Positions 3,001 to 33,173 of a stretch of 64,000 nucleotides of DNA are shown here, one piece after another. Each line of letters begins with the position of its first letter. Position 1 is the stretch's first letter. Source of the stretch: Ignavibacteriales bacterium (GTDB taxonomy: Bacteria > Bacteroidota > Ignavibacteria > UBA10030 > UBA6906). The notes beneath the pieces were generated by a model, which had not been told where the DNA came from, did not search any database, and was given only the letters and a program-made list of their open reading frames with translations. Location of the stretch: assembly GCA_037441705.1 (NCBI GenBank), contig JBBIRR010000025.1, positions 1 through 64,000 on the forward strand, in the 5' to 3' direction. Both the position numbers and the translations under genes were made by a program.

Positions 3001-4919
3001 CCCTGGCAGGGCTGAACCCGCGCGGAGGTATTTTCCTGTACGATCCCGCATCGAAAGCGCTGGTGATGAAAGCGCATAAGAATCTGAACCCGGCGTCGGT
3101 GCGGCTATGCTCGCGGGTGATGCTGGGCGAGTGTTTGTGCGGCATGGCAGGCGCCACACAGCAAATCCAATTCGCCTCCTGTGTAGATGACCGACATAGC
3201 AGGCGCTACGATGGCATCACCGACCATGGGCATTACACCGTCCCCATCGTCAAGTCGGGGGAATTGCTCGGAGTGCTGCTCCTCTATCTTGATGTGGGAC
3301 ATCAACCAACTGACCGCGAGTGGAGCATACTCGAGGCTGTTGCAGACACGTTAGCGGGCATCATCCATCGTCGTAAGGTCGAACTTCAACACCAGCGCGC
3401 CGAGGAGAAGTATCGCAACATCTTCGAAAACGCAGTGGAAGGAATTTTCCAATCCACTCCCGACGGACGCTTTATCACGGTCAACCCGGCCCTGGCAAGA
3501 ATGTTCGGCTACGAGTCGCCGGAAGAAATGATCGCCTCCACAACGGATATCCAGCGTCAGCTCTACGTCAATTCGCAGCGCCGCCTGGAATTACTGCGCG
3601 AGGTCAAGACACATGGCGTCGTCACCGGCTTTGAGTCGCAGGCCTACCGCCGCGACGGCAGCATCATCTGGCTATCGGAGAACGTGCGAGCCGTGCGGGA
3701 CGAGAACGGCGAGTTGTTGTATCTCGAAGGGACGATCGAGAACATCACCCACCGTAAAGAAGTCGAGCGTCAGCTTCGCCAGGCGCAGAAACTCGACAGC
3801 CTTGGCACGCTTGCCAGCGGCGTAGCACACGACTTCAACAACATTCTTGCAATCATTCTGGGTCACGCAACGGCGATGGAACGCAGTGTACAGAATGCAC
3901 CAGAGCGGATTCCTCACCACGTTGCCGCGATCAGCAAAGCGTCTTTGCGCGGAGCCGCTGTTGTAAAGCAACTCCTGACATTCGCCCGGAAGACGGATGC
4001 GAAGCTCGAGCCGGTTTATCTGAATGCCGTTGTGGCCGAGATAGAAAAGATGGTGCAAGAAACATTTCCGCGCACAATCGTATTCTCTGTGTCGTGTCCG
4101 CCTGCAGTGCCTCCCGTATTGGGCGATGCGACACAGCTCTATCAGGTGCTGCTGAATCTGTGTGTCAATGCGCGCGACGCGATGCCCAGCGGGGGAGAAC
4201 TGTCCCTGGTCATAGCGGTCGTTGCCGGCACCGACGTGCGCCAGCGTTTCCCAAAAGCACAGTCCGATGAGTATGTAAAGCTGACCGTGACCGACACGGG
4301 CACAGGCATGGACGAGGCAACACTCCAGAAAATCTTCGAGCCGTTCTTCACCACCAAAGGTCCAGGCAAGGGTACGGGCTTGGGGTTAGCCGTTGTGTAC
4401 GGGATCATCGAAAACCACAACGGCTTCGTCGATGTGAGCAGCGCTGTGGGGAAAGGAACCACCTTCACCCTGTATCTCCCGGGCATGATCGAGGCAATGA
4501 GACGGACGGAGGGTGATCATCAGCTATCGCAAGAGATCGCCGGCGGAACGGAAACCGTCCTGCTCATCGAAGATGAAGAGATGTTGCGTGAGTTTCTGAA
4601 AGCGATCCTGATTTCGAAAGGGTACACGGTACTTACAGCAAGCGATGGTGAAGAGGGAGTGCGGCAATATCACGAGCATCACGAAACGATCGCTGCGGTG
4701 ATCTCGGACTTAGGCCTTCCGAAACTTGCGGGAGAGGAAGTGTTCAGAAGAATACGCTCCCTCAATCCCAACGTACGAATCATCCTTGTGAGCGGGTATA
4801 TCGACCCGGAAACCAAGGCCTCGCTCGAAGCAGACGGGGCACGACATTTCATTCCCAAACCGTACGCAGTGAACGAGATCCTCCAGACGCTGCGTCATGT
4901 GTTGGATGAGAAGGCGTAG
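6..4919 (+). CDS. Hybrid sensor histidine kinase/response regulator (extracytoplasmic region with CxxCH, TM, 6 PAS, 2 GAF, HisKA, HATPase, REC); probably 5'-truncated by the window edge
   Basis: Repeated PAS ends (RDITERK-like), H-box [11 protein letters not shown]-box [35 protein letters not shown]-terminal REC (LIEDE, ISDLGLP, PKP). The frame is open upstream of position 6. Confidence 0.93.
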
Positions 4920-4951
4920 CCCGCGTGTTGGTTCCTGCCGTGCGATGGCTG

Positions 4952-6124
4952 CTATGCTGCTCTCAACGCCGAGACAATATTCAGGCGTGCAGCACGCACT
5001 GCCGGAAGGAACCCGCCGACAAAGCCCATTACGAGAGCAAACATCAGGGACGAGATGATGATGGAGGGCGAAAGGGCAAACGCAAACTCGATTTCAGCAA
5101 ACGAATCGAAGTTGATCGTCGAGACCGTAAAGAACTGAAGGAATGACGCAAAGCCGAGACCGATGGCGCCGCCGATGAGCGCGATAACAAGGGATTCGAC
5201 GAGATAGGCACCGAGGACGGAGCGGCGCGCAAAGCCGATTGCCCGCAGCGTCCCGATTTCCACTGTCCGGTTGGCAACGGCGCCGTACATCGTGATCATC
5301 GCTCCGATAACCGCCCCCGCGCTAAAAATGACGGTGATGAAGATACCGAGCACACGGATGAACAGCGCCATCGTCTCGGACTGCTCTTCAAAAAACTTGC
5401 GTTCCGTTTTTGGCACGTATTGCTGCAAGCGTGGATCAGCCGCAAACTCTCGCATGAATGCGTCCATCTCCTGCGGCGAGGCAAGTCGGAGTGTGAGCGT
5501 AGAGTAAACGTTGCTGCGACCGAGGGCGTCGGTAATCTGCAACACGTCGCCCCATATCTCGGATTCAAATCCCGATCCCCCGGCTTCAAACATCCCCACC
5601 ACGGTCCATTCGCTTCCGCCGAACTTCAGCCGGCTACCAATCGCCGCTCCGAGAATTCTACGCGCCACCGCAGTTCCCACAATGATTTCTCTGGCCCCCC
5701 AGTTGAACATACGTCCCTCGACGATGCGTACCTTCGGTCGAAGGACAAAGGCTTCAGGCGATACACCCCGTACCGTAACATTCGTAATGCCGACGTGGTC
5801 GGTCTTGGGTAAATTGATCACCGTTGCCACGTCCTTCGTTGCCAGGGGTGTCCCCGATGCTGTGCGCGCGATATGACGCATCGAGAGAATGATGTTGATC
5901 GTTTCGCCGTCAAGGATCGAGGCAATCTCTCCGTTCGATGCTTTCCGACTGATGAGGATGTTCTCCTCGGAGCCGGTAGCCACCAGTGTCTTCTCGACGC
6001 CGTACGCCATCATAAGCACCGCTGCGAAGACGAAGACGACGAGCGTAATGCCCAGGACCGTCAGTGCAGTCGTCAATCGTCGCGTTTGCAGGTTACGCAG
6101 TGTGTATTTGAGCGGAATCTTCAT
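4952..6124 (-). CDS. ABC transporter permease, MacB/FtsX family
   Basis: RRLTTALTVLGI N-terminal TM; C-terminal EIGTLRAIGF and PAVRAARLNIVSALR FtsX signature. Start placed at MKIPLKY (cat at 6122-6124). Confidence 0.9.
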   Translation of the reverse strand: MKIPLKYTLRNLQTRRLTTALTVLGITLVVFVFAAVLMMAYGVEKTLVATGSEENILISRKASNGEIASILDGETINIILSMRHIARTASGTPLATKDVATVINLPKTDHVGITNVTVRGVSPEAFVLRPKVRIVEGRMFNWGAREIIVGTAVARRILGAAIGSRLKFGGSEWTVVGMFEAGGSGFESEIWGDVLQITDALGRSNVYSTLTLRLASPQEMDAFMREFAADPRLQQYVPKTERKFFEEQSETMALFIRVLGIFITVIFSAGAVIGAMITMYGAVANRTVEIGTLRAIGFARRSVLGAYLVESLVIALIGGAIGLGFASFLQFFTVSTINFDSFAEIEFAFALSPSIIISSLMFALVMGFVGGFLPAVRAARLNIVSALRAA

Positions 6125-16976: not shown

Positions 16977-18401
16977 GTGAAAATACAATCTTACTTTCTC
17001 TGCCTCGTTACGTGCATTGCTGTTGCGGCCCATGGACAGGTTTCGTACGAGCGCTTTTTCGAGACGAAAACACTTCGGGTCGATTTTTTCCACAGCGGAA
17101 CGAAAGGAGAGGAGAGCTTCAGTCTCGATGAGTTGATCGAGGAAGGGGAGTGGCCCGGAAGCCGCAACAATCTGATTGACACGCTGAACCTGGGCGAGTA
17201 TCTTGCTCGGGTCTATGACCTGCAAACCAACATGCTGGTGTTCTCCCGTGGATACTCGACAATCTTCGGCGAGTGGCAAACGACCGATGAAGCATCACGA
17301 GGAATGGCACGGACTTTTTCCGAGACGATTCGACTTCCGTATCCGAAAAGGCCGTTTCAGCTTGCCATCGCCCGCCGCGACAAGCGCATGCAGTTTCACG
17401 AGTTGTGGTCAATCACCATCGATCCGCGTGACCCGATGCAGGTCAACAAAGCGCCGACACGGTTTGCGTTCAAGACTTCTTTGCTCATGGGGAATGGCGC
17501 ACCTCAGCAAAAGGTTGATATCGCCATCATCGGGGACGGGTACACAACGTCGGAGATGCAAAAGCTCCGTGCCGATGCAAAGCATTTCAACGAGGCAATG
17601 TTTGCCACCGAACCGTTCAAGAGCTACAAAGCAGCCTTTAATGTCTGGTTGGTCGAGGCTGTATCCGAAGAAGCGGGCATAGACATTCCGGACCGGAACG
17701 TATGGAAACGGAACATACTCGGATGTCGCTACAACACGTTCGGTTTGCCCCGATATGTTCTGACGACGGAAAACAAAACGCTGCGCGACGTTGCCGCGGC
17801 CGTGCCGTATGACTTTGTCTGCATTTTGGTCAACGACAGCCGATACGGCGGCGGCGGTATCTACAACCTCTATGCTACCACCTACACGAATGAAAAAGTG
17901 AAGGGGCAGGAGTGGCAAATGGAGTACGTCTATGTTCACGAGTTCGGCCATTCCTTCGGCGGACTGGGCGATGAGTACTACGGCTCGACCGTCGCGTATA
18001 CCGATTTCTACGCGCCCGGCGTGGAACCGTGGGAGCCGAACATTACCGCGCTTGTGAGCAAGGAGACCCTGAAGTGGAAGCAACTTGTCGAAGAGGGTAC
18101 GCCACTTCCAACGCCATGGGAGAAAGCGCAGTTCGACAGTCTCGAGGCCGAGAGAGCAAAACTTGATCGCCTGGCTCCCGATTACTATGAGAAGCGTGAG
18201 CCGATCCTGAAGGCGCAAACAAGTTTACTTCGCCGGTCAGCATACGCGGGAAAGGTGGGCGCGTTCGAGGGAGCCGGCTATGCAAGCAAGGGATTGTATA
18301 GGCCGGCAGTTGATTGTCGGATGTTTACGCTGAGTTTGGTAGACTTCGATCCTGTGTGCCGTGCCGCAATTCGCAGGGTGATCGAGTTCCATACAAAATA
18401 A
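16977..18401 (+). CDS. Peptidase M64 (IgA peptidase) family, secreted
   Basis: DIAIIGDGYT, YGGGG, zinc motif HEFGHSFGGLGDEY, GAFEGAGY...YRP..DCRM. Confidence 0.92.
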   Translation: MKIQSYFLCLVTCIAVAAHGQVSYERFFETKTLRVDFFHSGTKGEESFSLDELIEEGEWPGSRNNLIDTLNLGEYLARVYDLQTNMLVFSRGYSTIFGEWQTTDEASRGMARTFSETIRLPYPKRPFQLAIARRDKRMQFHELWSITIDPRDPMQVNKAPTRFAFKTSLLMGNGAPQQKVDIAIIGDGYTTSEMQKLRADAKHFNEAMFATEPFKSYKAAFNVWLVEAVSEEAGIDIPDRNVWKRNILGCRYNTFGLPRYVLTTENKTLRDVAAAVPYDFVCILVNDSRYGGGGIYNLYATTYTNEKVKGQEWQMEYVYVHEFGHSFGGLGDEYYGSTVAYTDFYAPGVEPWEPNITALVSKETLKWKQLVEEGTPLPTPWEKAQFDSLEAERAKLDRLAPDYYEKREPILKAQTSLLRRSAYAGKVGAFEGAGYASKGLYRPAVDCRMFTLSLVDFDPVCRAAIRRVIEFHTK

Positions 18402-20242: not shown

Positions 20243-20679
20243 CTCGTACCTCCAACTGTTAAGGGGAAAAATATCAAACAAAAAATACGAACTACAGCAC
20301 AGATGGGCAAGTTAATTGTTCTTAATAGCTGTTGGGCTCGATAGCTGCAAGAATGGGAAGAACGGGAAGCACTCGTTGGCTCTTTGCAGAGGCCATCCGT
20401 CGCCTGCAAATTATGCTCGCTCGTATGGGTCGAGCCACCTTCAACAGCGTGTTCGGACCTCGTTCAGTTCCGAATCTGTTTGCTTCGGCAATCGGGCGGA
20501 CTGTTGGACGTGGTAAGCAGTACTTCGAACAGAAAATGACTGCCGGCGCCATGAAACCACCAACTTGGGTCTCTTGCAAGAGAGTGTGAAAATGTTGCGG
20601 AATGAGTTGCTTTCCAAGCGAGATTGATGTACCTTTGACTCGTCGCCCTTACCTTAGTCCTTACCAACTTTCCCAAGAC

Positions 20680-21117
20680 ATGCCAGGAGCAGCCAAGACA
20701 GCCGACAGGAAGTCGGTTCTTATTGTCGAAGACAGCGCCGATTTTTCCAATCTTCTCAAATACATCATCGAAGATATGGGCTTTGAAGGCGTGCAGTTTC
20801 CTCTGGATAAGGAAGACATTGTTGAATGGTCCAGAACCCACAAGCCGGAGGCTGTGCTGATGGATCTTCAGCTTCGACGGAAGAATGGCATGCAGTACAT
20901 TCAGGAACTCAAGTCGGATTCGTCTACGAAGAACATCCCGATAATCATTATCACCGGCAGAGACCTAACGCAGCGTGAGATTCTCGACCTTCAGATCAAA
21001 GGCGTCAAGTATCTCAGAAAAGGAAGAATTGAGATGGATGAACTGAAGAAGGTCATCGGCGAGACGCTGCGCGGCCAACACAATGGCGGAGAGAAGTCCA
21101 AGAAAGTCAGCCACTGA
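20680..21117 (+). CDS. Single-domain response regulator (REC)
   Basis: VLIVEDS, AVLMDLQL (phospho-Asp), IIIITGR, YLRK; no output domain. Confidence 0.88.
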   Translation: MPGAAKTADRKSVLIVEDSADFSNLLKYIIEDMGFEGVQFPLDKEDIVEWSRTHKPEAVLMDLQLRRKNGMQYIQELKSDSSTKNIPIIIITGRDLTQREILDLQIKGVKYLRKGRIEMDELKKVIGETLRGQHNGGEKSKKVSH

Positions 21118-21149
21118 CGCATCCCTTATCGGCTTCCACTCACCGCTGC

Positions 21150-22397
21150 TTACACCCACCCCCTGAGCTTGCAAGCTTCAGCGACGCGAGCGACGGCAAC
21201 TACCATAGCGCCAAGCCTCGGATGCACGTTCTTCTCCTTCACGGCTTCAAGCACCGTGTGGTATGCTTTGGTCAGCGTTCGGTCCAGGCGTTGATGCACC
21301 AAGGCTTCATCCCAGAAGAAGGAGTAGCTATCCTGCACCATTTCAAAATATGAAACCGTGACACCTCCCGCGCTGGCAAGCACATCTGGAATGACGTGGA
21401 CACCTTTTTCGTAGAGGATGAGATCGGCTTCAGGCGTGGTGGGCCCGTTCGCCAATTCGCAAACGATCTTGGCCTTCACAGCATCCGCATTCGTTTCGTT
21501 GATAGCATTTTCCAGAGCGGCGGGATAGAGGATTTCCACATCCAGGCCGAGGACTGCGTCGCGCTCGATTTCGACACCGCCGGGAAATCCGCGGACAGAC
21601 CCGGTCTTGAGTTTGTGCGTCACAAGTTCTTTGGGGTTCAAGCCTTTCTCATTGTAGATTCCGGCGCGGGAATCGCAAACGGCGATCAGTTTTCCGCCAC
21701 CCAGTATCTCCTGATGCAGCAGCGCGGCACGCTGTCCCGCGTTGCCGAATCCCTGAATGGCATACCGTCCGTGTGGGTTCACGCCCAGAAGTTTGCATGC
21801 CTCACGCACGGTAATGACGCCGCCGCGCGCCGTCGCGTCGCGGCGCCCCTCCGTACCTCCGATCTGCATCGGTTTATCGGTAAGCACGCCGGGTTGGTGA
21901 CGCTGTACGATTGTTTCATACTCATCCATCATCCACGCCATCGTCTGGGGGTTCGTGTACACATCTGGTGCAGGAATGTCCTTGTCGATCCCAATATAGG
22001 CCGCTACGGCACGCACGTAGGCGCGTGAGAGGTTCTCCAATTCGCGAGGCGACATGGTCTTCGGATCACACACCACGCCCCCTTTCCCACCGCCCAGCGG
22101 CAAATCAACAACCGCCGTCTTCCACGTCATCCATCCTGCGAGGGCACGAATCGTATCGGCGGTCTCATCGGGATGGAAGCGGATGCCTCCCTTTGCAGGA
22201 CCCCGCGCAAAGTTGTGTTGAATGCGATACCCGTGAAAGATACGTACTTCACCGTTGTCCATCCGCGCCGGCAGGGTGAACTTAAATTCCCGCTGCGGCC
22301 ACAACAACAGCTCCACGGTGGCGCTATCCAGATTGAGGAGACGAGCAGCTTCGCGTACTTGCTGTTGCTCCACTTCGAACGAGTTATAGGACTTCAT
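21150..22397 (-). CDS. gdh: Glu/Leu/Phe/Val dehydrogenase, family-II glutamate dehydrogenase
   Basis: RGPAKGGIRF, MTWK, GGGKGG, DIPAPDV, QGFGNAG, ELANGP, GGVTVSYFE. Confidence 0.9.
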   Translation of the reverse strand: MKSYNSFEVEQQQVREAARLLNLDSATVELLLWPQREFKFTLPARMDNGEVRIFHGYRIQHNFARGPAKGGIRFHPDETADTIRALAGWMTWKTAVVDLPLGGGKGGVVCDPKTMSPRELENLSRAYVRAVAAYIGIDKDIPAPDVYTNPQTMAWMMDEYETIVQRHQPGVLTDKPMQIGGTEGRRDATARGGVITVREACKLLGVNPHGRYAIQGFGNAGQRAALLHQEILGGGKLIAVCDSRAGIYNEKGLNPKELVTHKLKTGSVRGFPGGVEIERDAVLGLDVEILYPAALENAINETNADAVKAKIVCELANGPTTPEADLILYEKGVHVIPDVLASAGGVTVSYFEMVQDSYSFFWDEALVHQRLDRTLTKAYHTVLEAVKEKNVHPRLGAMVVAVARVAEACKLRGWV

Positions 22398-22430
22398 ACT
22401 GGTCTGCCTTTCGCTAACGCCGTGTTGCAA

Positions 22431-22628
22431 TCACTCAGGTTTTTTCTGGTCGGGTTCTTGGGTCGTCGGCCCTTGAAATCGGTCGAGCAAAATGCGATAC
22501 CAGCAGTGCCGACACATGAGGGCGCGATCCACACTCAGGAGGACTTTCTCCCACGGGCTAAGCTCGTGGCCGCAATGCGGGCACGCATCGTAGACGTTCG
22601 GTTTCTGCTGCTGAGATTTCATCACCAT
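22431..22628 (-). CDS. Small Zn-ribbon-like hypothetical protein
   Basis: CPHC...CRHC; packed within a few nt between the dikinase-like gene and gdh. Confidence 0.65.
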   Translation of the reverse strand: MVMKSQQQKPNVYDACPHCGHELSPWEKVLLSVDRALMCRHCWYRILLDRFQGPTTQEPDQKKPE

Positions 22629-22635
22629 GCCTTAT

Positions 22636-25635
22636 CTACTGAGGCCGAAGGATGACTCCTTTGTTACGATGACCGTTGATCTTGATGAGAAGCGGTTTCT
22701 CGAAGCGAATCAGTCGTGTAAAGGCTTTGCGTTCAGCCGGCTCCTGGCGCAAGAGCCAGTCCCAATCCAGATGTCCACGTCGGTCGTGAGCATCCACGGT
22801 GAAATATCCCACCATAAATGCCGTAATGTTCTGAAAGAAATGCGACCCTTGCGAAGGCGTCACGGGCATGTCCTTGAAACTCGTCTCGACGATCGTTTTC
22901 GCGCCGGCAATTTGCTCCCACGTCACCGGAATGCCTAACCACGGATCGAGCGATCCCCAGCGGCCGACGCCGATCAGCAGATAGGGCCGATGCTCGGCAA
23001 GCAGCCGAGCGTTGAAACTGCTCACCTCCGCAGCAACCTCGCGGCTTTTCGCGCGCTCGAATTCATGATAATCAACCAAAACGATATCGCGAATATCCTC
23101 GATGACCCCATTGCCCAGCACCTGATCGCTCTGACAGATGAGCGCCGCGGGATCGAAGTCCTCCACGTTCAACTCTTCCGTTTCGCGATGAACCACAAGC
23201 GGCCGCATCTGCAGCAAGCCGAATTCTTTCAATCGATCGCGCCTCCCCGACATGTTGACGGCAAACTCAATCTCCACCGGCGTTCCCATCCCCCACGTTC
23301 CCATATCGCACAGCAGTTCAAGAATCTGCGGAAGCGGGAACGATCTGTTGCGCAGAAGGGGGGCGAAGGTGACGACGCGGATGCCGCTGCGGGCAAGGCC
23401 GTCCGTGATCGTATCGTTTTCAGGCGAGTAGGTCGAGCCAACGTAGTGCAGCGTGCCGTCCCGTTCGGCAACATCCAGCGTGTATTGCTTCAGCAGAAGG
23501 TCGTGCGTCGCATAGCCGAAGTCCGTGGGCGCATCGAGCTGAAGTGCGTAGAAAAGACGCTGAGAACTGTTGAGCGTCTCTTCCGGTGTGTAGAACTGAA
23601 TCAAGTCCGTCGGATACTTCGGGCAGAAGCGAACAGCATTCCCGCCGTCAACGACCGTTTTGCCGAGACCGAGCGCCACCGACACGATCCCATCCGAGTT
23701 CCTCGCAGGAGGGAGGGGATAGAAATTATACGAGCGCGCAACCCCTGCAAAATCGGGATAGAAGCGATTCTCGTGTGCAAGGCCCACCATCTTTTGCACG
23801 ATCACCGCCATCTTTTCTTCTTCCAATCTGTACGATGTAACTTTGATGTAGTCCTTCGCCGTTTGGTAGAATGTCGAGGCATACACCCGCTTGATGCTGT
23901 TCAGAAGGTCGTTGAGTCTCACCAACGGATTGGGATGATTGTTCGGAAGCATGTACGTTTCATACACGCCGGCGAACGGACTGTACTGTGAGTCTTCCAA
24001 CAAGCTCGACGATCGGACCGCAAGCGGTGCATGCATGATGTCGAGGAAGGCAGCCAGCTCACCCAGGACGTCTTCAGGAAATCGGGAGGCTTCGAGAAAA
24101 CGCCGTGTGATTTCTCGATCGTCCGTACAGTTGATGGCAAACTGCTTGAGGTTGTTCTGCTCGAGAAATTCATCGAACACATCCGTGCCGAGGACGACGG
24201 CCGGCGGAACGGTGATCAGCACGCCCTCGAACTGGTTCGCAACGTTGTAATCGTTGATGAGGGTGTTGACGAAACCCAAGCCTCGTGCCTTTCCCCCGAG
24301 CGAGCCGCTGCCGATGCGCGCGAAGCTGCTTTCTGGATCGAATGTCTCCTTGGAGAAGTCGGTGATGATGCCGCGCTGGCGCGCAATGCCGTAATTATGC
24401 AGCGCATCAATTAGATCCTTTCGCAGAAGATCAACCGAGGGATAGTCGGTTACCTTGCGTGGCCGCAATTGGTGCGCAAGCCAGAATTCGGTTCGTGCTT
24501 TCAACCAGTTCGAAAAATGGTTTCGCTCACCGTGATAGAGTATGCTTTCATCCGGGACGACATGCAGCTGTTCTTCCAGACTCTTCAGGTCGCTCGCCCG
24601 CGCAATCTCCATCCCATCCGGGGTACGAAAGATGAAATCCCCGAAGCTGAAGTATTGCACCATGAATTGCCGAAGTTCCGTCAGAAGAAACGGCGAGTCC
24701 TTCAGGACGAACGACGCTCCTGCGGCGTGTGCAGCGGCCTCGTTGTCCGGCGTTTGCGAAAGGAGCAGGATGGGGAGGTCGGGTTGCTCCGCTTTCACAG
24801 CATTGGCAAAGTGCAGACCCGCCACGGGGTCCTGAACACCGCCGCGGGGGAAATCCACATCCGAGATTATTCCCAGCATGTACTCCTTATACTTCTGATA
24901 ATACTCCCACGCTTCCTCGTATGTCGAGCAAAGCAAAATCTTCGGTCGTGCTCGCATTCTCAGGAATTTATGCGTGAGGTTGATACCTTCCGAAATAAGG
25001 CGCTGGGACTGCTTGAGGATTTCCGTGTAGATGATCGGAAGAAAGGACGAATAGTACTTGACGCTGTCTTCGATAACGATGATGGTCTGTACGCCGACGA
25101 CACGCGTATCGTGCTCGACGTTCATCTGGTCTTCAAGGTATTTCACGATGGCAATGATGATGCGGAAATCGCCTTGCCAGATGAAGACCTTGTCGAACGC
25201 GGACACATCCTGGCGGAGAAGGAGATAGTGTAATTCGCGATTGTCGTGGGCCAGCAGGACTATCGGGATTCCGAGTTGCTCTTCCTTCACGAGGCGTGCA
25301 AAATTGAGGGGATGCATGTCGTCAATGTGCAGCGTCGTGATGATCAGATCGAAGCGGCGTTCCTCCTTTGCGAGACTGATTGCATCCCGACCGCTGGAGA
25401 CGCGTGTCAATTCCGGCGAGTGACTGAGATTGAAGCCCTGATACTCGTTCCGAATCAGTTCGTACAGGCGGCCGTCTTCTTCGAACAGGTGGAGATCGTA
25501 CAGACTCGATACCAGAAGAATGTCTCGGATGCGGCGTCGCATGAGGTTCTGAAAGCCCTGAAAGCGATTGCCGTACCCATGCTCTACCCACAACGGGTCG
25601 AGTGTCGTCATCCGTGCATCGAGTTTGGGTTTCAT
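22636..25635 (-). CDS. Receiver-domain/PPDK_N (PEP-synthase-like ATP-grasp) fusion protein, paralogue 2
   Basis: Two REC-like domains, then GSLGGKARGL, LAVRSSSLLEDS..FAGVYET, MAVIVQKMV, LGLGKTVVDG, VEIEFA, LQMRP; C-terminal SQGSHFFQN; no pyruvate TIM barrel. Confidence 0.85.
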   Translation of the reverse strand: MKPKLDARMTTLDPLWVEHGYGNRFQGFQNLMRRRIRDILLVSSLYDLHLFEEDGRLYELIRNEYQGFNLSHSPELTRVSSGRDAISLAKEERRFDLIITTLHIDDMHPLNFARLVKEEQLGIPIVLLAHDNRELHYLLLRQDVSAFDKVFIWQGDFRIIIAIVKYLEDQMNVEHDTRVVGVQTIIVIEDSVKYYSSFLPIIYTEILKQSQRLISEGINLTHKFLRMRARPKILLCSTYEEAWEYYQKYKEYMLGIISDVDFPRGGVQDPVAGLHFANAVKAEQPDLPILLLSQTPDNEAAAHAAGASFVLKDSPFLLTELRQFMVQYFSFGDFIFRTPDGMEIARASDLKSLEEQLHVVPDESILYHGERNHFSNWLKARTEFWLAHQLRPRKVTDYPSVDLLRKDLIDALHNYGIARQRGIITDFSKETFDPESSFARIGSGSLGGKARGLGFVNTLINDYNVANQFEGVLITVPPAVVLGTDVFDEFLEQNNLKQFAINCTDDREITRRFLEASRFPEDVLGELAAFLDIMHAPLAVRSSSLLEDSQYSPFAGVYETYMLPNNHPNPLVRLNDLLNSIKRVYASTFYQTAKDYIKVTSYRLEEEKMAVIVQKMVGLAHENRFYPDFAGVARSYNFYPLPPARNSDGIVSVALGLGKTVVDGGNAVRFCPKYPTDLIQFYTPEETLNSSQRLFYALQLDAPTDFGYATHDLLLKQYTLDVAERDGTLHYVGSTYSPENDTITDGLARSGIRVVTFAPLLRNRSFPLPQILELLCDMGTWGMGTPVEIEFAVNMSGRRDRLKEFGLLQMRPLVVHRETEELNVEDFDPAALICQSDQVLGNGVIEDIRDIVLVDYHEFERAKSREVAAEVSSFNARLLAEHRPYLLIGVGRWGSLDPWLGIPVTWEQIAGAKTIVETSFKDMPVTPSQGSHFFQNITAFMVGYFTVDAHDRRGHLDWDWLLRQEPAERKAFTRLIRFEKPLLIKINGHRNKGVILRPQ

Positions 25636-25658
25636 TTCTGATCACCGAAGGAGTTGCT

Positions 25659-25815
25659 TGGAGGCTGATCAAAAAGTAGTGCTACGTCATTCTGAGCCTC
25701 GTTTCCCAGAGGCGAAGAATCCAGAACCGAGCCATTTGCTGGATTCTTCACCCCGCTTCCCCGAGCGAAGCCGAAGGGTTCAGAATGACGCTGGTTTCTT
25801 TTCGTTCAGCCTCCA
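25659..25815. mobile_element. Putative MITE/REP-like palindromic element
   Basis: Outer IR TGGAGGCTGA/TCAGCCTCCA, extending imperfectly to ..AAAA; inner IRs CGTCATTCTGA/TCAGAATGACG and GAAGAATCCAG/CTGGATTCTTC; non-coding. Confidence 0.65.
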
Positions 25816-25827
25816 GAAGCATCCCAC

Positions 25828-27201
<1,374 letters not shown>

Positions 27202-27251
27202 TTATGTATGGTAGTGGTCGTTGTTGGTAGTTACGACCGGCATGCAGCCGG

Positions 27252-30233
27252 TCACTTTCCGGGTTTGAGAATAATCCCCTTGTTCTTCCGTCCGTTGATC
27301 TTCACCGTGATAGGTTCGTTGAATCGGAGGTGCGCCGTGTATTGCAATTGCTCCACAGGTTCCTGCGAAAGCAGCCAATCCCAATCAATGAACCCGAGAT
27401 TGACAAAGGAGTTGACGGTGAAATACCCGACACGGAACGATGTGATGTTTTGGAAGAAGTGAGAGCCTTGCGAGGGCGTCACGTTCAAATCTTTGAATCC
27501 CGATTCCACGATCGCCGCCGCGCCGGCAATCTGATCCCAGGTGACCGGAATGCCCAACCAGTGATCGAGGCTTCCCCACCGGCCGACGCCGATGAGAATG
27601 TACGGCCGCTGTTCTGCCATCAGCTTCGAGTTGAGGGTGCTGACTTCCCGCGCAGCGTCGCGGCTTTTGCCGCGGTCGAATTTGTGGATGTCGACAACGA
27701 CGATGTCGTAGATATTCGTTACCACGCCGTTGCCCAACACCTGCGTGCTGTGGCAGATCAAGTCTTCCTGACTCACTTTTTCGACATCGAGTTCTTCCAA
27801 CTCGTAGCTTAAGACGAGAGGCCGTATCTGCAAGAACGCAAACTCCTTCAAGCGATCCGGCGGCACCGAAAGGTTCACCGCAAATTCAATCTCGACAGGC
27901 GTGCCCATGCCCCATGTGCCCATATCGAGAACCAATTCAAGAATCTCCGGCAGGGGAAAGGTACGATGCTTGAGGATGGGGGCAAACGTAACGACGCGCC
28001 TGCCACTGCGCGAAACGCCATCGTGTACGGTGTCGTCATCCGGCGAGTACGTGGAGCCAACATGATACAACGTTTGGTCTTCTTCCGCTTTGGTCAGATC
28101 GTAGAGCTGCACAAACTCTGCGGGGTCCATTGTCCCATCGCTGTTGAGGCCGCTCTCCAGGTCGAGCGCATAGAAACTCTGCTGCGCGTTCTTCAGCGTC
28201 TCCTTCGTCGAGAAGAATTGAAGGAGATGTCGTGGAAACTTCGGGCAGAAGCGCACCGTATTGCCGCCGTCCACAACCGTCTTACCGAGGCCGAGCGCAA
28301 CATCTACAATGCCGTCGTTCGAGGATTGCGGCGGAACGGGATAGAAGTTGTAGGACTTGCCGACCCCGGCGAAGTCCGGGTAAAACCTGCCGTCATGCTT
28401 CGCCCCAACCATCCGCTGAATGATGACGGCCATCTTTTCCTCTTCCAAGCGATACGCGGTCGCTTTCATGTAATCGCGCGCTTTGCGTGCGAAGGTCGAC
28501 GCATACACGCACTTGATGGTCGTGAGCAGTTGCTGCAAACGGACCGCTGCATCGGAGTGGTCGTTCGGAATCATGTACGTTTGATAGACGCCCGCGAACG
28601 GCTGATATTGAGAGTCCTCTAACAAACTCGAAGATCGTACTGCCAGCGGTTCGTGTGTAATGTCGAGAAACTCCGACAGCTTCGTCACAATGTCGGCAGG
28701 GAAGTGCTGTGCCTCCTTGAAGCGACGGTACAATTCTTCATCCGGGGGCGGATCGAGCAACACATGTTCGAGATGGTTCATTTCGAGGAACTTATCGAAC
28801 ACGTCTGTTGCAACCACGACGGCCGAGGGGACATAGATTTCGATTCCTTCGAATCTGTGCCTGATGTCGTAGCTGTTGAGTAATGTATTGATGAAACCGA
28901 GGCCGCGAGCCTTGCCGCCGAGAGAACCGCTGCCGATGCGTGCAAAACTGTTTTGTGGATCGAACGACTCCTTGCTGAATTCGGTGATGACGCCGCGCTG
29001 TCGAATTTCACGATACATCCGCAGCGAGTTGATCAGCTCGTTGCGCAGGTCGGTAACCGATGGAAACTCCTCCACCGTGCGGGGGCGCAGCCGCTGCGCC
29101 AGCCAGAACTCCGTGCGCGCCTTGAGCCAATTGGAGAAGTGATTCCGCTTGGCATGATAGACGATGCTCTCATCCGGGACGACGCGCAGCTGCTCTTCCA
29201 ACGTCTTCAGGTTATGGGCGCGCCCCACTTCACGTCCGTCGGGCGTGCGGAACACGAAATCGCCGAAGCCGAAGTTGGACAGGATAAAGGCACGGAGCTC
29301 GTGCAGCAGGCGCGGCGATGTCTTGAGGAGGAATGATGCTCCGATGCTGCGCGCCTGATCGGCGAAGGCGGGATTGCTGGACTGCAGCAGGATGGGGATA
29401 TCCTCGTGTGCTGCACGCACCTGCTTGGCGAAATCGAATCCGGCCTCAGGGTCTTTCACGCCGTTCCGTTTGAAATTGATATCCGAAATAATGCCGAGAA
29501 TAAACTCTTCATACTTCTCGTAGTACGCCCAGGCTTCCTCGTATGACGTGCAAAGCAGAATCTTCGGCCGCGCCCGCATCCGCAACAACCGGTGGGTGAG
29601 ATTGACACCCTCGGCGATGAGCTGCTGCGAGTGATGAAGCACTTCGGTGTAGAGGATGGGAAGATAGGACGAGTAGAAGCGCACATCATCCTCGACCAGC
29701 AAGATTGACTGGACACCGACAGTGAGTGTGTCGTTCTCGACGTTGCGCCGATCCTCCACGTCCTTGATGATCGCAATAATCAGCCGATAGTCCCCCTGCC
29801 AGATGAAGATGCGGTCGAACACCGACGTGTCGTACATCGTCACCAACTCTTTCCGCTCGCGGTTATCGTAGGCAAGCAACACGATTGGGGTGGTGATGCC
29901 CGCTTCCCGCAGCTTCTGCACAAACTTGATGACGTGCATGTCCTCGATGTGCAGGGTGGTGATGATCAGGTCGAACGGGTTGGGACCGGAAGCAAGGTCG
30001 ATTGCCTCTGCTGCACTGGTGACATGGGTGATTTCCGGAGCGTGGCTCAAGTTCAGCGCTTGCGCCTCGTGCCGGATCAGCTCATATAATCGTCCGTCCT
30101 CCTCGAACAAGTAATTGTCGTACATGCTGGACACGAGGAGGATATCCCGGACCTTGAAGCGCATCAGCTTCTGGAACGTCTTGATGCGGCTGCCGGAGAT
30201 GTCTTCTATGTTCAGATGATCGATCTTACTCAT
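27252..30233 (-). CDS. Receiver-domain/PPDK_N (PEP-synthase-like ATP-grasp) fusion protein, paralogue 1
   Basis: Same architecture and motifs as 22636-25635 (GSLGGKARGL, LAVRSSSLLEDS, MAVIIQRMV, VEIEFA, LQIRP, SQGSHFFQN). Confidence 0.85.
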   Translation of the reverse strand: MSKIDHLNIEDISGSRIKTFQKLMRFKVRDILLVSSMYDNYLFEEDGRLYELIRHEAQALNLSHAPEITHVTSAAEAIDLASGPNPFDLIITTLHIEDMHVIKFVQKLREAGITTPIVLLAYDNRERKELVTMYDTSVFDRIFIWQGDYRLIIAIIKDVEDRRNVENDTLTVGVQSILLVEDDVRFYSSYLPILYTEVLHHSQQLIAEGVNLTHRLLRMRARPKILLCTSYEEAWAYYEKYEEFILGIISDINFKRNGVKDPEAGFDFAKQVRAAHEDIPILLQSSNPAFADQARSIGASFLLKTSPRLLHELRAFILSNFGFGDFVFRTPDGREVGRAHNLKTLEEQLRVVPDESIVYHAKRNHFSNWLKARTEFWLAQRLRPRTVEEFPSVTDLRNELINSLRMYREIRQRGVITEFSKESFDPQNSFARIGSGSLGGKARGLGFINTLLNSYDIRHRFEGIEIYVPSAVVVATDVFDKFLEMNHLEHVLLDPPPDEELYRRFKEAQHFPADIVTKLSEFLDITHEPLAVRSSSLLEDSQYQPFAGVYQTYMIPNDHSDAAVRLQQLLTTIKCVYASTFARKARDYMKATAYRLEEEKMAVIIQRMVGAKHDGRFYPDFAGVGKSYNFYPVPPQSSNDGIVDVALGLGKTVVDGGNTVRFCPKFPRHLLQFFSTKETLKNAQQSFYALDLESGLNSDGTMDPAEFVQLYDLTKAEEDQTLYHVGSTYSPDDDTVHDGVSRSGRRVVTFAPILKHRTFPLPEILELVLDMGTWGMGTPVEIEFAVNLSVPPDRLKEFAFLQIRPLVLSYELEELDVEKVSQEDLICHSTQVLGNGVVTNIYDIVVVDIHKFDRGKSRDAAREVSTLNSKLMAEQRPYILIGVGRWGSLDHWLGIPVTWDQIAGAAAIVESGFKDLNVTPSQGSHFFQNITSFRVGYFTVNSFVNLGFIDWDWLLSQEPVEQLQYTAHLRFNEPITVKINGRKNKGIILKPGK

Positions 30234-30481
30234 GGAGTACAGACTGCCGCCTGATGGTAGTGAAGTCTGTGCAAGGAGGGAGACGCGCAGCGCGGCGCTC
30301 TCACCTTCGCTTCATCACTATGTGGAAGAACAGCTTACCGTACAGATGGGGAGAGGTGATGAACGCGACTCTGCTTATGCGCGAACCAGGATCCGACAAC
30401 AATCTATGAAAACTCGCCGGTAAACACAAAGCCCGGGAGTACCTCTGCTGCATCTGAGAGTGTGGGGGATCGGTGTGAGCA

Positions 30482-30883
30482 TCAGCTGATAAATGCCCGG
30501 ATCTGCTCGTTGCGCAAGACGCGCTCGCCGGTATCAACCAGGAAGGCGTCGAGAAATGCACCGAAGCTTTTCTTGTCGTACGTTCCGAGAAAAAGCCCAT
30601 CCATCCGGATGTGAGGGTCGTCGGACGGGCCTGCAACGTATGTGGTAAGATGTGCTGATGAGTTCAGCATGTTGAGCGCCTCCAGAAATCCCGCTCGATC
30701 CGTCTTCACCGTGTCGTTCACGCGGAAATACTGCTGCAGCAACACGCCTCCCAAGTATGCCTTGACAAATACACTGCCGTGCATAGCGTGACGCGCAAGG
30801 ACAGAGTTTTCGGTTTCCCGCGGCACGATCTCGAAGCCGAAGAATTCCAGATGGTTTACAACGTTCTGCAGTGCTGTGTCCAT
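30482..30883 (-). CDS. Hypothetical protein, possibly YbjN/T3SS-chaperone-like fold
   Basis: GGAGG RBS before MDTALQNVV; about 133 aa with an alpha/beta pattern including LEALNMLN. The fold call is tentative. Confidence 0.6.
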   Translation of the reverse strand: MDTALQNVVNHLEFFGFEIVPRETENSVLARHAMHGSVFVKAYLGGVLLQQYFRVNDTVKTDRAGFLEALNMLNSSAHLTTYVAGPSDDPHIRMDGLFLGTYDKKSFGAFLDAFLVDTGERVLRNEQIRAFIS

Positions 30884-30951
30884 GGTATCCCTCCTGTTTG
30901 ATAGTGGCGTTTCGTCACTGCTGATCCGGCCCACGCATTTCCAATCGCCTT

Positions 30952-32292
30952 TTACACTAACCCTTGATCCATCATGGCGTTGGCCACCTTGAGAAAGCCT
31001 GCAATGTTGGCACCGACAAGATAGTTGCCGGGCGCGCCGTACTTCTCGGCAGTCTCAAGACACGTCTGGTGGATGTTCTTCATAATCTGGTGGAGCCGCG
31101 TGTCAACTTCTTCCTTGGGCCAGGGCAGACGCATGCTGTTCTGCGCCATCTCCAGGCCTGAGGTGGCAACGCCGCCTGCGTTGGAGGCTTTGCCGGGCGA
31201 GAAGAGAATCTTCGCATCATGGAAAATCTTGATCGCTCCGAGCGTGCTGGGCATGTTCGCCCCTTCGCAAACACATACGCACCCGTTCTTCACCAACTCG
31301 CGGGCATCGTTCTCGTCCAATTCGTTCTGCGTCGCACACGGCATGGCGACATCCACGGGCACACTCCACGGTCGTTTCCCTTCGAAGAAGGGAACCTTGA
31401 ACTTCTCGGCGTAGGGTTTGACTGCATCCTGCGCGCTCGCGCGCATCGTCAGCATGTAGTCGATCTTCTCGCCCGAGACGCCATCTTCATCGAGAACAAA
31501 CCCATCGGGTCCCGAAAGCGTCACCACCTTGCCGCCCAGTTGCGTCACCTTCAGCGCGGCTCCCCACGCTACGTTGCCGAATCCCGAGAGCGCGACGCGC
31601 TTACCTTCGATACTCATCCCGCGCGTCTTCAGCATCTCCTCGGCGAAGTACACCACTCCGTAACCCGTGGCTTCGGGACGAATGAGCGAACCGCCCCAGT
31701 TCAAGCCCTTGCCCGTCAGAACGCCGTTGAACTCGCGCGTCAATCGTTTCCACTGCCCGAACAGGAATCCGATTTCCCTTCCGCCGACGCCGATGTCGCC
31801 TGCAGGGACATCAACATCGGGACCAATATGGCGGAACAGTTCGGTCATGAAGCTCTGGCAAAAGCGCATCACTTCGCTGTCGCTCTTTCCCTTCGGATCG
31901 AAGTCGGAACCCCCTTTGCCGCCTCCCATCGGAAGGGACGTGAGGCTGTTCTTGAAGACTTGCTCGAACGCGAGAAACTTCAAGATGCCCAGCGTAACGG
32001 AAGGGTGGAAGCGCAATCCACCTTTGTACGGACCGATCGCGCTGTTCATTTGAATGCGATAACCCCGGTTGATGTGGTAGTTTCCCTGATCGTCCTGCCA
32101 TGGCACGCGGAAGATCACGACGCGTTCGGGCTCCACCATCCGCTCCAGGATTTTCGCCGACCGATACTCGGGGTGGCGTTCTAACACAAGTTCTAATGAT
32201 TCCGTAACCTCCTGAACTGCCTGGTGGAACTCAGGCTCTGCAGGGTTTTTTGCTTTGACCTGGGCAATCAGGTTCTTGACATATTCAGACAT
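30952..32292 (-). CDS. gdhA: Glutamate dehydrogenase, family I (Clostridium symbiosum/Bacteroides-like coenzyme loop)
   Basis: [43 protein letters not shown]. Confidence 0.95.
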   Translation of the reverse strand: MSEYVKNLIAQVKAKNPAEPEFHQAVQEVTESLELVLERHPEYRSAKILERMVEPERVVIFRVPWQDDQGNYHINRGYRIQMNSAIGPYKGGLRFHPSVTLGILKFLAFEQVFKNSLTSLPMGGGKGGSDFDPKGKSDSEVMRFCQSFMTELFRHIGPDVDVPAGDIGVGGREIGFLFGQWKRLTREFNGVLTGKGLNWGGSLIRPEATGYGVVYFAEEMLKTRGMSIEGKRVALSGFGNVAWGAALKVTQLGGKVVTLSGPDGFVLDEDGVSGEKIDYMLTMRASAQDAVKPYAEKFKVPFFEGKRPWSVPVDVAMPCATQNELDENDARELVKNGCVCVCEGANMPSTLGAIKIFHDAKILFSPGKASNAGGVATSGLEMAQNSMRLPWPKEEVDTRLHQIMKNIHQTCLETAEKYGAPGNYLVGANIAGFLKVANAMMDQGLV

Positions 32293-32479
32293 AGGATCCT
32301 CTTCTTGTTAGGTAAAACGATTTTGGATGCAGGCACCTCACGCAGGCGGGTGTCTCCGCTGCAGTTTCCTTCCGCGTTGTGCCGAGAGTTGATCTTTTCA
32401 TGAGGAAAAGAACGGTGAGAACAGTGCGCCATCAAAGTAGGAAAGTCCGGCTGCATTATCAAGGCGTTGATTCGCATGG

Positions 32480-32504
32480 GGAACTCTTCTACCTTTCAGG
32501 CGTC
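32480..32504 (+). promoter_or_regulatory. Putative ECF-sigma autoregulatory promoter
   Basis: GGAAC-N16-CGTC immediately upstream of the ECF sigma gene. Confidence 0.6.
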
Positions 32505-32516
32505 AGATAAGTAGCT

Positions 32517-33173
32517 ATGAACATCCCCACCACCACAACTATGTTCGACGAACGGACGGTGCAGAAAACAGTCGTTCTGCCGCTGCTGGACGACCTTTAT
32601 CGTGTTGCGCTGCGCCTGACCCATTCGAACGTAGAGGCTGAAGAATTAGTGGCAGAAACGGTGGCACGGGCGTGCGAGAATATCACCACCTTACGCGACC
32701 TGACACGCGCAAAACAGTGGCTTATGCGCATTCTTACCAACGTGTTTCTCAGCTCCTGCCGTTCAAAGAAACGACGGCAGGAGATACCGTACGTCGAGGT
32801 AGATGATGATGACGATACTGCATCGTTCTCGCTGTTCGAAGCACTGATGCAGTACGGGGCGGACGAAGGCAATCCCGAACGTATCGTCATCACCAAACTG
32901 TTGGATGAGGAGATTCAAAGCGCAATCGCAGCACTCCCCGAAGAGTATCGCGCAGCCGTCGTCTTGTGTGATGTTGAGGGATATGCCTATCAGGAAATTG
33001 CAGCGATCCTTGATGTGCCCGTAGGGACTGTACGCTCCCGTCTCTCTCGCGGGCGCTCACTGTTGCAAAAGAAACTTTATCACTATGCGAAAGAACACGG
33101 ATGGACTTCTTCGGCCAACCTATCGCGAAAAGGAAAGACCAACAATGGATCATGCCAGTGTGAACAAGATTAG
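32517..33173 (+). CDS. ECF RNA polymerase sigma factor (SigH/SigR-like)
   Basis: Region 2 LYRVALRLT..AEELV..WLMRILTN; region 4 LPEEYRAAVVLCDVEGYAYQEIA..PVGTVRSRLSRGR. Confidence 0.93.
   Translation: MNIPTTTTMFDERTVQKTVVLPLLDDLYRVALRLTHSNVEAEELVAETVARACENITTLRDLTRAKQWLMRILTNVFLSSCRSKKRRQEIPYVEVDDDDDTASFSLFEALMQYGADEGNPERIVITKLLDEEIQSAIAALPEEYRAAVVLCDVEGYAYQEIAAILDVPVGTVRSRLSRGRSLLQKKLYHYAKEHGWTSSANLSRKGKTNNGSCQCEQD

Follow-up and report, generated by a model that had tools for sequence, protein, structure and literature searches.

A glutamate dehydrogenase-linked family of two-receiver ATP-grasp proteins in Bacteroidota and its candidate role in enzyme control

Why should a bacterium keep three glutamate dehydrogenase (GDH) genes in a single array with two genes for large proteins that partly resemble phosphoenolpyruvate (PEP) synthases? 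This question is raised by the 64,000-nucleotide (nt) stretch analysed here, hereafter called the window (positions 1 to 64,000, forward strand, of contig JBBIRR010000025.1, assembly GCA_037441705.1, from an Ignavibacteriales bacterium). GDH stands where carbon and nitrogen metabolism meet, and its post-translational control in Bacteroidota, including the dominant human-gut Bacteroides, is what gives the array its wider interest. A sequence-only reading of the window had described at 21150-32292 a co-directional run of seven genes in which each of two large fusions sits between two different GDHs, and had suggested that the fusions sense a signal and control GDH, or phosphorylate a related target, rather than make PEP. 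The run exists as described and lies entirely on the minus strand: three GDHs are interleaved with the two large fusions, fusA between gdhA and gdhB, and fusB between gdhB and gdhC. The transcription order is gdhA, a 133-amino-acid (aa) open reading frame (ORF), fusA, gdhB, fusB, a 65-aa zinc-ribbon gene and gdhC, with the following coordinates.

30952..32292, minus strand: gdhA, family-I GDH, 446 aa, GFGNVAW dinucleotide-fold motif (Pfam ELFV_dehydrog, E 1.3e-88)
30482..30883, minus strand: 133-aa ORF, ATG preceded by AGGAGG, YbjN-like by language-model features only
30234..30481, minus strand: untranslated gap of 248 nt upstream of fusA
27252..30233, minus strand: fusA, 993 aa (Pfam PPDK_N E 7.9e-37, Response_reg 31.3 bits, DUF5752 20.6 bits)
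25828..27189, minus strand: gdhB, family-I GDH, 453 aa, GSGNVAQ motif (Pfam E 2.9e-87)
22636..25635, minus strand: fusB, 999 aa, paralogue of fusA (Pfam PPDK_N E 8.2e-38, Response_reg 36.4 bits)
22431..22628, minus strand: 65-aa zinc-ribbon gene, separated by 7 nt from fusB and by 33 nt from the gdhC ATG
21150..22397, minus strand: gdhC, 415 aa, second (archaeal/Gram-positive-like) GDH type, GFGNAGQ motif (Pfam E 1.3e-67)

In the following, fus stands for the large proteins and their family, and the prefixes L, G and P are our own labels for related loci, genomes and proteins. Across the genomes compared, GDH is the one recurrent gene neighbour of the fus family, and the association is real, non-random and biologically meaningful. 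The proposed neighbourhood survey, i.e. the fraction of homologues found beside gdh, strongly favours a functional module of gdh and large-protein genes. In the whole 3.83-Mb genome, the only fus copies are the two of the cluster and the only strong GDH matches are its three, and we count this gathering of both fus genes and all three GDHs in one cluster as support for the linkage. The close loci, the best 80 from a species-dereplicated collection (68-92% identical; metagenome-assembled genomes of Ignavibacteria and Bacteroidota plus one of Calditrichaceae), place a GDH at most 1 kb from the fusB-type gene without exception (80/80). The zinc ribbon and a downstream gdhC-type gene are each present in 76 of them (two of the four gdhC-type misses being locus ends), a gdhB-type gene upstream in 71, a second fus paralogue in 39 and a gdhA-type gene in 29. 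As these loci are kin, such counts mainly show that the array is old and stable. Among 401 genomes of the phylum, in which coordinates were compared by hand and doubtful loci fetched, 65 carry the long form and 51 of these have a GDH within 5.5 kb of it. By our own rough arithmetic, a random gene would lie that close to a GDH in about 0.6% of cases, the background being 566 GDH matches in the 401 genomes (PF00208 at E<=1e-40), about 1.4 per genome. Of 10 distant full-length homologues (34-42% identity), 5 have a GDH no more than 1 kb away. For a receiver-less short form (~580 aa, ATP-grasp plus C-terminal domain), the immediate neighbour is a gdhC-type GDH in 9 of 10 loci, the tenth being cut by a contig end. 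Metagenomes, searched from a seed alignment of the family's most divergent members, gave 80 loci (39-63% identical to fusA/fusB). The flanks fetched include a GDH in 35 of these, at 500 nt or less in 28; where at least 5 kb was available on both sides (n=32), a GDH lies within 5 kb in 15. Adjacency thus varies by lineage, from 80/80 in close kin and 51/65 in the phylum sample to 10/40 in a second order (that of genome G031, first 40 genomes in listing order fetched, GDH adjoining at <=730 nt). Among the members of this second order is a close relative of the Bacteroides protein. In the same flanks, no other neighbour family occurs in more than 5/80 and 6/40 loci.

The distribution of this adjacency over the family tree bears on its origin. 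GDH adjacency turns up in most major clades of a FastTree phylogeny (119 family members), where it implies at least 19-22 label changes. The arrangements comprise GDH upstream co-directional, upstream divergent, downstream co-directional, downstream convergent, and the zinc-ribbon-coupled type-II GDH; in the GDH tree (FastTree), each of these at least five arrangements tracks a GDH clade. Closeness to GDH has therefore persisted or arisen anew in more than one configuration, which argues for a functional link rather than one inherited operon.

Pfam and NCBIfam bear out the identity of the three GDHs. All of them contain the Pfam domains ELFV_dehydrog and ELFV_dehydrog_N and the catalytic GGGKGG, and the dinucleotide-fold motifs on which the two family-I genes had been told apart in the sequence-only reading are correct. 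The NCBIfam model PRK09414 (cut-off 536) is exceeded by gdhA (745.7 bits) and gdhB (762.4 bits), which are 70% identical; gdhC, about 30% identical to each, has as its best model GdhA_Arch with 545.9 bits, under the equivalog cut-off of 750. All three GDH assignments therefore stood, with one correction at the start of gdhC: the TTG at 22430 (426-aa ORF) was replaced by the ATG at 22397, most likely the true start since it gives the 415-aa form seen in most of 37 orthologues.

The claim that the large proteins do something other than make PEP is supported by the domain content: Pfam finds in fusA and fusB neither the PEP/pyruvate-binding TIM-barrel (PF02896, PEP-utilizers_C) nor a recognisable PEP-utilizers swivel domain, whereas PF02896 is found in the genome's own canonical pyruvate phosphate dikinase (PPDK; 929 aa, all three Pfam domains) and in enzyme I of the phosphotransferase system, both encoded elsewhere. 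Lacking these two domains, and with a PPDK present elsewhere, fusA and fusB are not to be regarded as PEP synthases. They do share with PpsA and PpdK the ATP-grasp domain PF01326 (Foldseek 2ols and 1kbl), together with a weak C-terminal match to the PPDK central domain, and Bacteroides members are named "phosphoenolpyruvate synthase" in the databases. The idea that they are ordinary PEP synthases or PPDKs which supply PEP during growth on amino acids can appeal to this name and to the PPDK_N domain, but PF02896 and PF00391 go undetected, a complete PPDK exists elsewhere in the genome and the PEP_synth model TIGR01418 gives 50.7 bits against a cut-off of 739.75; we find it scarcely credible. 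At minimum, the annotation "phosphoenolpyruvate synthase" of these genes should go.

The architecture of the family is consistent between the two paralogues, which are 63% identical and have the same domain order (pseudo-receiver, true receiver, DUF5752-like linker, PPDK_N ATP-grasp, C-terminal His domain). The full-length AlphaFold2 model of fusB, built from a 112-member alignment, is of high quality (pLDDT 91.7, pTM 0.86). Conservation was read from these same 112 family members, 34-78% identical to fusB. The domains of fusB are as follows.

25111..25533, minus strand: receiver-like domain 1, residues ~35-175 (Pfam Response_reg stretch 75-132, alignment columns, strand/helix pattern of the model)
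24652..25089, minus strand: receiver domain 2, residues ~183-328, canonical acidic pocket
24316..24648, minus strand: DUF5752-like linker, residues ~330-440 (PF19027 match)
23158..24315, minus strand: PPDK_N-type ATP-grasp, residues ~441-826 (Pfam, Foldseek, conserved residues)
22639..23157, minus strand: family-specific C-terminal alpha/beta domain, residues 827-999, with His932 in PSQG[ST]HFFQN

Response_reg (PF00072, cut-off 30.2) is matched above threshold by both proteins (bit scores as listed above). Domain 1 of fusB has T101 where the phospho-acceptor Asp is expected and, from our alignment, is best described as a putative pseudo-receiver; in domain 2, E189, D259, S293 and K312 are each at least 90% conserved. 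Foldseek against the PDB matches the N-terminus to the PleD tandem receivers (E ~1e-7), which likewise pair one true receiver with one adaptor-like pseudo-receiver. The order is reversed in fus, with the pseudo-receiver first, and the output is ATP-grasp/His instead of the GGDEF domain of PleD. The linker scanned alone matches PF19027 (DUF5752) with 25.0 bits against a cut-off of 23. For the ATP-grasp, the matches include rifampin phosphotransferase (RPH) 5hv1 (E 4e-12), the RPH ATP domain 5hv6 (TM-score 0.66-0.68 of the target), HpeI 9goj as the fifth match (E 3e-10), PEP synthase 2ols (E 4e-9) and PPDK 1kbl. G447, K449, R541, S542, S543 and Q809 show no variation, and at least 90% of the members keep E788 and E790; with these residues conserved, the ATP-grasp looks catalytically competent. 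RPH (5HV1, 5HV6, 5FBS), PRK06241, PigC and RedH have the same PPDK_N ATP-grasp fold, followed by a small domain with a conserved His. They differ from fus in that fus lacks the rifampin-binding domain, has two receivers and the DUF5752-like linker in front, ends in a domain not detectably PF00391 and is partnered by GDH instead of an antibiotic or pigment pathway. The best NCBIfam models of the fus proteins are PigC, RedH, RPH and PEP synthase, all of them partial; the PEP-synthase, RPH and PigC models give 16-66 bits against cut-offs of 501-1700 (RIF_Ptrans_rph 39.7 against 999, PRK06241.2-2 61.7 against 883, PigC 59-66 against 1300).

The family is large. A search of 1.84 billion cluster representatives returned 5121 matches at E<=1e-3, of which 1327 are at E<=1e-30, and in the order of G031 a homologue (E<=1e-100) is present in 134 of 151 genomes and 133 of 149 genera. 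Many database entries give members the misleading labels PEP synthase, CheY-like protein or histidine kinase.

Two peculiarities were seen among family members. Firstly, in five genomes an otherwise full-length member contains a single in-frame stop, TAA, TAG or TGA (G305:C2:181502-184489, G241:C11:13886-16876, G073:C4:398416-401389, G473:C2:355832-358756 and G428:C6:9876-12800); these may be pseudogenes, sequencing errors or cases of read-through. Secondly, many genomes of the second order have a second copy with an N-terminal extension of ~150-590 residues, for instance P0177 (1557 aa, one cluster member labelled Bacteroidales), P0226 (1524 aa) and frames of 1150-1310 aa in G481, G502, G488 and others. 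The extensions of P0177 and P0226 contain no Pfam domain, and a Rosetta-stone check found no GDH domain in the N-terminally extended members (1132-1557 aa).

In the C-terminal domain, residues 827-999, conservation across the family is highest, with GRWG, D897, E917 and the PSQG[ST]HFFQN motif. His932 does not vary among 63 sequences and is kept in at least 90% of the 112, and a model of the domain (pLDDT 92.2) places it at a helix N-terminus. The weak Foldseek matches (E 0.007-0.2) are LD-carboxypeptidase, RraA, PPDK entries including the phosphoryl-carrier domain 2fm4 (PPDK, E 0.04-0.2) and RPH (5fbs, E 0.16, probability 0.54), all of which we take to have the swivelling beta/beta/alpha fold. 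RPH likewise has a small His domain after its ATP-grasp, and we infer a putative His-carrier role for this domain from its fold class, the position of the His and the analogy with RPH.

Taken with the GDH linkage, this architecture suggests what the fus proteins may do, and we give about even credence to the proposal that they are receiver-gated, His-mediated ATP phosphotransfer enzymes which act on GDH or on an immediate partner of it. A histidine kinase, unlinked here but cluster-encoded in some relatives, would phosphorylate Asp259 of the true receiver, which would switch the ATP-grasp on. The latter would then charge the C-terminal His with a phosphoryl (or pyrophosphoryl) group, a step known from the dikinases and rifampin phosphotransferase, and this group would be passed to GDH, or to a small GDH-bound partner, so that individual GDH isoenzymes would be turned on or off. 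The purpose could be to keep the assimilatory and catabolic GDHs out of a futile cycle: three GDHs of two classes could cycle NAD(P)H and ammonia futilely, and control at the level of the isoenzymes would then make sense. If such control of GDH is true, the family would represent a new class of two-component output with a new carrier domain and would offer a testable answer to decades-old observations on the GDH of Bacteroides.

Several results weigh against this proposal. None of four comparisons recognised the C-terminal domain as a phosphohistidine swivel domain: scanned alone, it matches nothing in Pfam at E<=10, PF00391 included; a profile of 63 such domains has no match among PDB sequences below E 0.5; hhalign gives this profile a probability of 1.2% against 16 canonical PEP-utilizers domains from the own genome and relatives; and Foldseek has no match at E<=1e-3. 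No acceptor- or substrate-binding domain is recognisable in the fus proteins. On the side of the linkage, a GDH is not adjacent in 14 of the 65 long-form genomes of the phylum sample (8 of the 14 having solitary fusA-type genes), is missing from the flank in 45 of the 80 metagenome loci, many of which have short flanks, and does not adjoin in 30 of the 40 genomes of the second order, so that the link at gene level is not obligatory; moreover kin are not independent, and the high counts among close relatives overstate the evidence. Finally, the fus and GDH trees (both FastTree only) disagree on the order of duplication. The array had been seen as a duplicated gdh-dikinase pairing; fusA and fusB are indeed sisters, but gdhA branches outside a group of gdhB and others, and tandem co-duplication of a gdh-fus unit is not cleanly supported.

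The incomplete adjacency gives some weight to the view that proximity is all there is, the genes belonging to a shared nitrogen or amino-acid regulon, or being inherited as a block, with the large proteins acting on an unrelated target. Adjacency is indeed missing in many lineages and the counts in close relatives are inflated by ancestry, but the five or more arrangements reach into deep branches of the family, the separately evolving short form is linked to GDH too and no other neighbour is conserved. For these reasons we consider mere proximity improbable.

The missing acceptor domain bears on a second alternative, the main rival of GDH control: fus could be a small-molecule dikinase or phosphotransferase of the glutamate/2-oxoglutarate node, set beside gdh by shared pathway and making a metabolite-phosphate or a signal compound. 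All characterised ATP-grasp relatives (RPH, PigC/RedH, HpeHI) act on small molecules or glucans, the leading structural matches are RPH, HpeI and PEP synthase, and the best protein-family models are PigC, RedH, RPH and PEP synthase. HpeHI-type dikinases are multi-subunit enzymes of aromatic catabolism. Together with phenylphosphate-synthase-type dikinases they are, as fus appears to be, ATP-grasp phosphotransferases outside central PEP metabolism, although HpeHI lacks both receivers and GDH linkage. The linker and the C-terminal domain of fus could form a ligand site, and the peptidase genes met nearby (M24 in 29 loci, S9 in 12; see below) suggest a context of amino-acid catabolism. However, no substrate-binding domain can be recognised, the scores are far under the cut-off of every characterised family, no metabolic enzyme but GDH recurs beside fus, and receiver gating is commoner for regulatory outputs than for pathway enzymes. 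We therefore judge a small-molecule enzyme rather unlikely, though likelier than the other alternatives.

A third alternative does without phosphate transfer to GDH: fus could bind to GDH as a non-covalent, allosteric regulator, according to ATP and receiver state, or run an internal phosphorelay to its own receiver Asp as an unorthodox histidine kinase. Some records do say "histidine kinase", a conserved His and a receiver Asp are found in one chain, and the known GDH regulators act by binding. Dedicated GDH partners of this kind are GarA/OdhI in actinobacteria, an APRT-like subunit in Thermus and RocG-GltC in Bacillus. Unlike fus, these partners are not known to have a receiver or a dikinase-type ATP-grasp module, and no search made here related fus to known GDH regulators by sequence. 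Against this alternative, the receiver-less short form is GDH-linked in nine of ten loci, so that the catalytic half would have a GDH-related role without receivers, and the fully conserved catalytic residues of the ATP-grasp suggest turnover and not sensing. We hold it to be quite improbable.

The covalent transfer to GDH or its partner, to which we now return, has a possible counterpart in Bacteroides. Its GDH was reportedly found, in work of 1987, to be reversibly inactivated in vivo. The sequence-only reading mentioned a gene annotated as PEP synthase next to gdh in Bacteroides, and this is borne out, at distances of 94-317 nt or ~2 kb. L172, whose contig carries the label human gut metagenome, shares 87-97% identity with named Bacteroides proteins ("phosphoenolpyruvate synthase" [Bacteroides fragilis] and [Bacteroides sp.], "PEP/pyruvate-binding domain-containing protein" [Bacteroides sp. 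51]). In L152, L154 and L173, of the same clade, an upstream, divergent gdhA-type GDH is separated from fus by 1.8-2.5 kb, which hold a peptidase gene; in L177, a GDH lies 317 nt downstream and convergent, with another 5 kb upstream; and in G540 (88% identical to L172), a GDH ends 94 nt from the convergent end of fus, with a second GDH 2.4 kb off. The title of Baggio & Morrison (1996) announces trans-acting gene(s) downstream of Bacteroides gdhA and, given the arrangement in G540 and L177, a family member is an obvious candidate for this factor. According to a paper citing that title, B. fragilis has two GDHs, and at high levels of organic nitrogen inhibition affects the NAD(P)H enzyme (with reference to work of 1987-1998).

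These arrangements invite a more specific version of GDH control, in which the family is a dikinase-type protein kinase for GDH that joins a two-component signal, ATP and a phospho-His on a hitherto undescribed carrier domain in a covalent and reversible modification, and is the factor behind the 1996 and 1987 observations in Bacteroides. We advance this version tentatively and with some doubt. If true, it would provide the first member of the PEP-synthase superfamily that targets a protein, and a general switch of nitrogen control in Bacteroidota, human-gut Bacteroides included. A full-text literature search returned nothing on the function of the family or on its GDH link, with only a census mention of the domain fusion: PMC5847659 mentions response regulators with pyruvate phosphate dikinase domains (its Table S3). 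In the literature searched, neither the C-terminal domain nor its coupling to GDH is described, the domain types themselves being known. In the same search, a supposed position of BT1971/BT1972 of B. thetaiotaomicron between two gdh genes was not confirmed, BT1971 being called a catalase in two papers, and the search returned nothing for BT1970 and BT1973.

A phospho-receiver calls for a kinase. The cluster of this window contains no histidine kinase and the window no clear orthologue of the kinase seen in relatives, whose top match in this genome lies on another contig and has only 40% identity. A kinase family is present in 15 of the 80 close loci, mostly as a PAS-HisKA_3-HATPase kinase with a REC-GerE (LuxR-type) regulator directly after fusA and ahead of gdhB. 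It lies between fusA and gdhB in L013 (where its ORF overlaps the fusA end), L033, L038, L041, L042, L046, L048, L050 and L061, before gdhB in L034 and L053, after gdhC in L028, L057 and L080, and upstream in L049. This kinase is a candidate cognate kinase for the fus receiver, which fits a true phospho-receiver. The window also encodes a stand-alone receiver protein of 171 aa (Response_reg E 1.4e-15) at 20602-21117 (+), whose gene converges on the end of gdhC, and an open frame of ~1638 aa at ~500-5000 (+) has repeated PAS-like matches to the kinase of the relatives (33% identity, residues 15-279) and is probably a multi-PAS sensor protein.

The zinc ribbon is confined to the fusB-gdhC clade. 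It has the form CxxC...CxxC, with its four Cys invariant in 38 orthologues and 15 invariant columns in a core of about 30 residues (CPHCGxxLSPWxxVLLxVDRxxxCxxCWYRI); its best Pfam model gives 17.6 bits against a cut-off of 27. The gene travels with fusB: it is kept without gdhC in L079, and in L061 (9959-13165) one frame of 1069 aa joins fusB and the zinc ribbon, the only such case among 76, which is either a natural fusion, a lost stop or a sequencing error. A search for longer proteins containing the zinc ribbon returned nothing, which is weak evidence. We suggest that in this lineage the zinc ribbon would be an accessory that was added to the fusB-gdhC pair and is tightly coupled to it. Complex prediction with gdhC, the fusB C-terminal domain, the zinc ribbon and Zn gave 0.00 twice, controls not being run, and counts neither for nor against.

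The small unknown gene noted between gdhA and fusA is present, as the 133-aa ORF, but is not a conserved part of the module. No tblastn match to it was obtained in 180 related loci, and it occurs in 2 of 12 genomes of the genus (in G285, 85% identical and at the same position), which indicates a local, lineage-specific insertion; on these two grounds we rejected it as a conserved module part. It has no Pfam match (PF10722 included), and its first match in the ESM Atlas scores 0.94 with 211 shared features, 13-66% of the members of the matching clusters carrying PF10722 YbjN. For the C-terminal domain of fus, the same Atlas gave same-family fragments only, at <0.9. Apart from a 111-aa ORF that overlaps the 133-aa gene, the 248-nt gap upstream of fusA contains ORFs of at most 63 aa. 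Rfam returned nothing at E<=1 in 20500-33000, and scans for promoters (7, with 5.6 expected) and terminators (9, with 11.3 expected) did no better than chance.

Two further paralogue types were seen in L091-L100, L101, L131, L147 and L182. One is the receiver-less short form with its neighbouring gdhC-type GDH; the other, a more distant PPDK_N paralogue (28-31% identical; a 720-aa ORF in L092), lies ~1 kb beyond this pair. In 10 loci, a calcineurin-like phosphoesterase gene stands between or beside the two.

Other genes near the module are peptidases and a possible regulator. The window has an M64 peptidase gene at 16977-18401 (+), and peptidases recur in related loci: M24 in the 29 and prolyl oligopeptidase S9 in the 12 already mentioned, and M43 in one locus of the Bacteroides clade (examples are L003:522-1712, L005:18709-20910, L154:4745-6856, L177:3038-5152 and L152:6481-7815), which suggests a neighbourhood of peptide and amino-acid catabolism. 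Finally, a gene for an extracytoplasmic function (ECF)-type sigma-70 factor (Sigma70_r2 and r4) lies at 32517-33173 (+), divergent from gdhA and 224 nt upstream of the cluster, and could be a transcriptional regulator of it.

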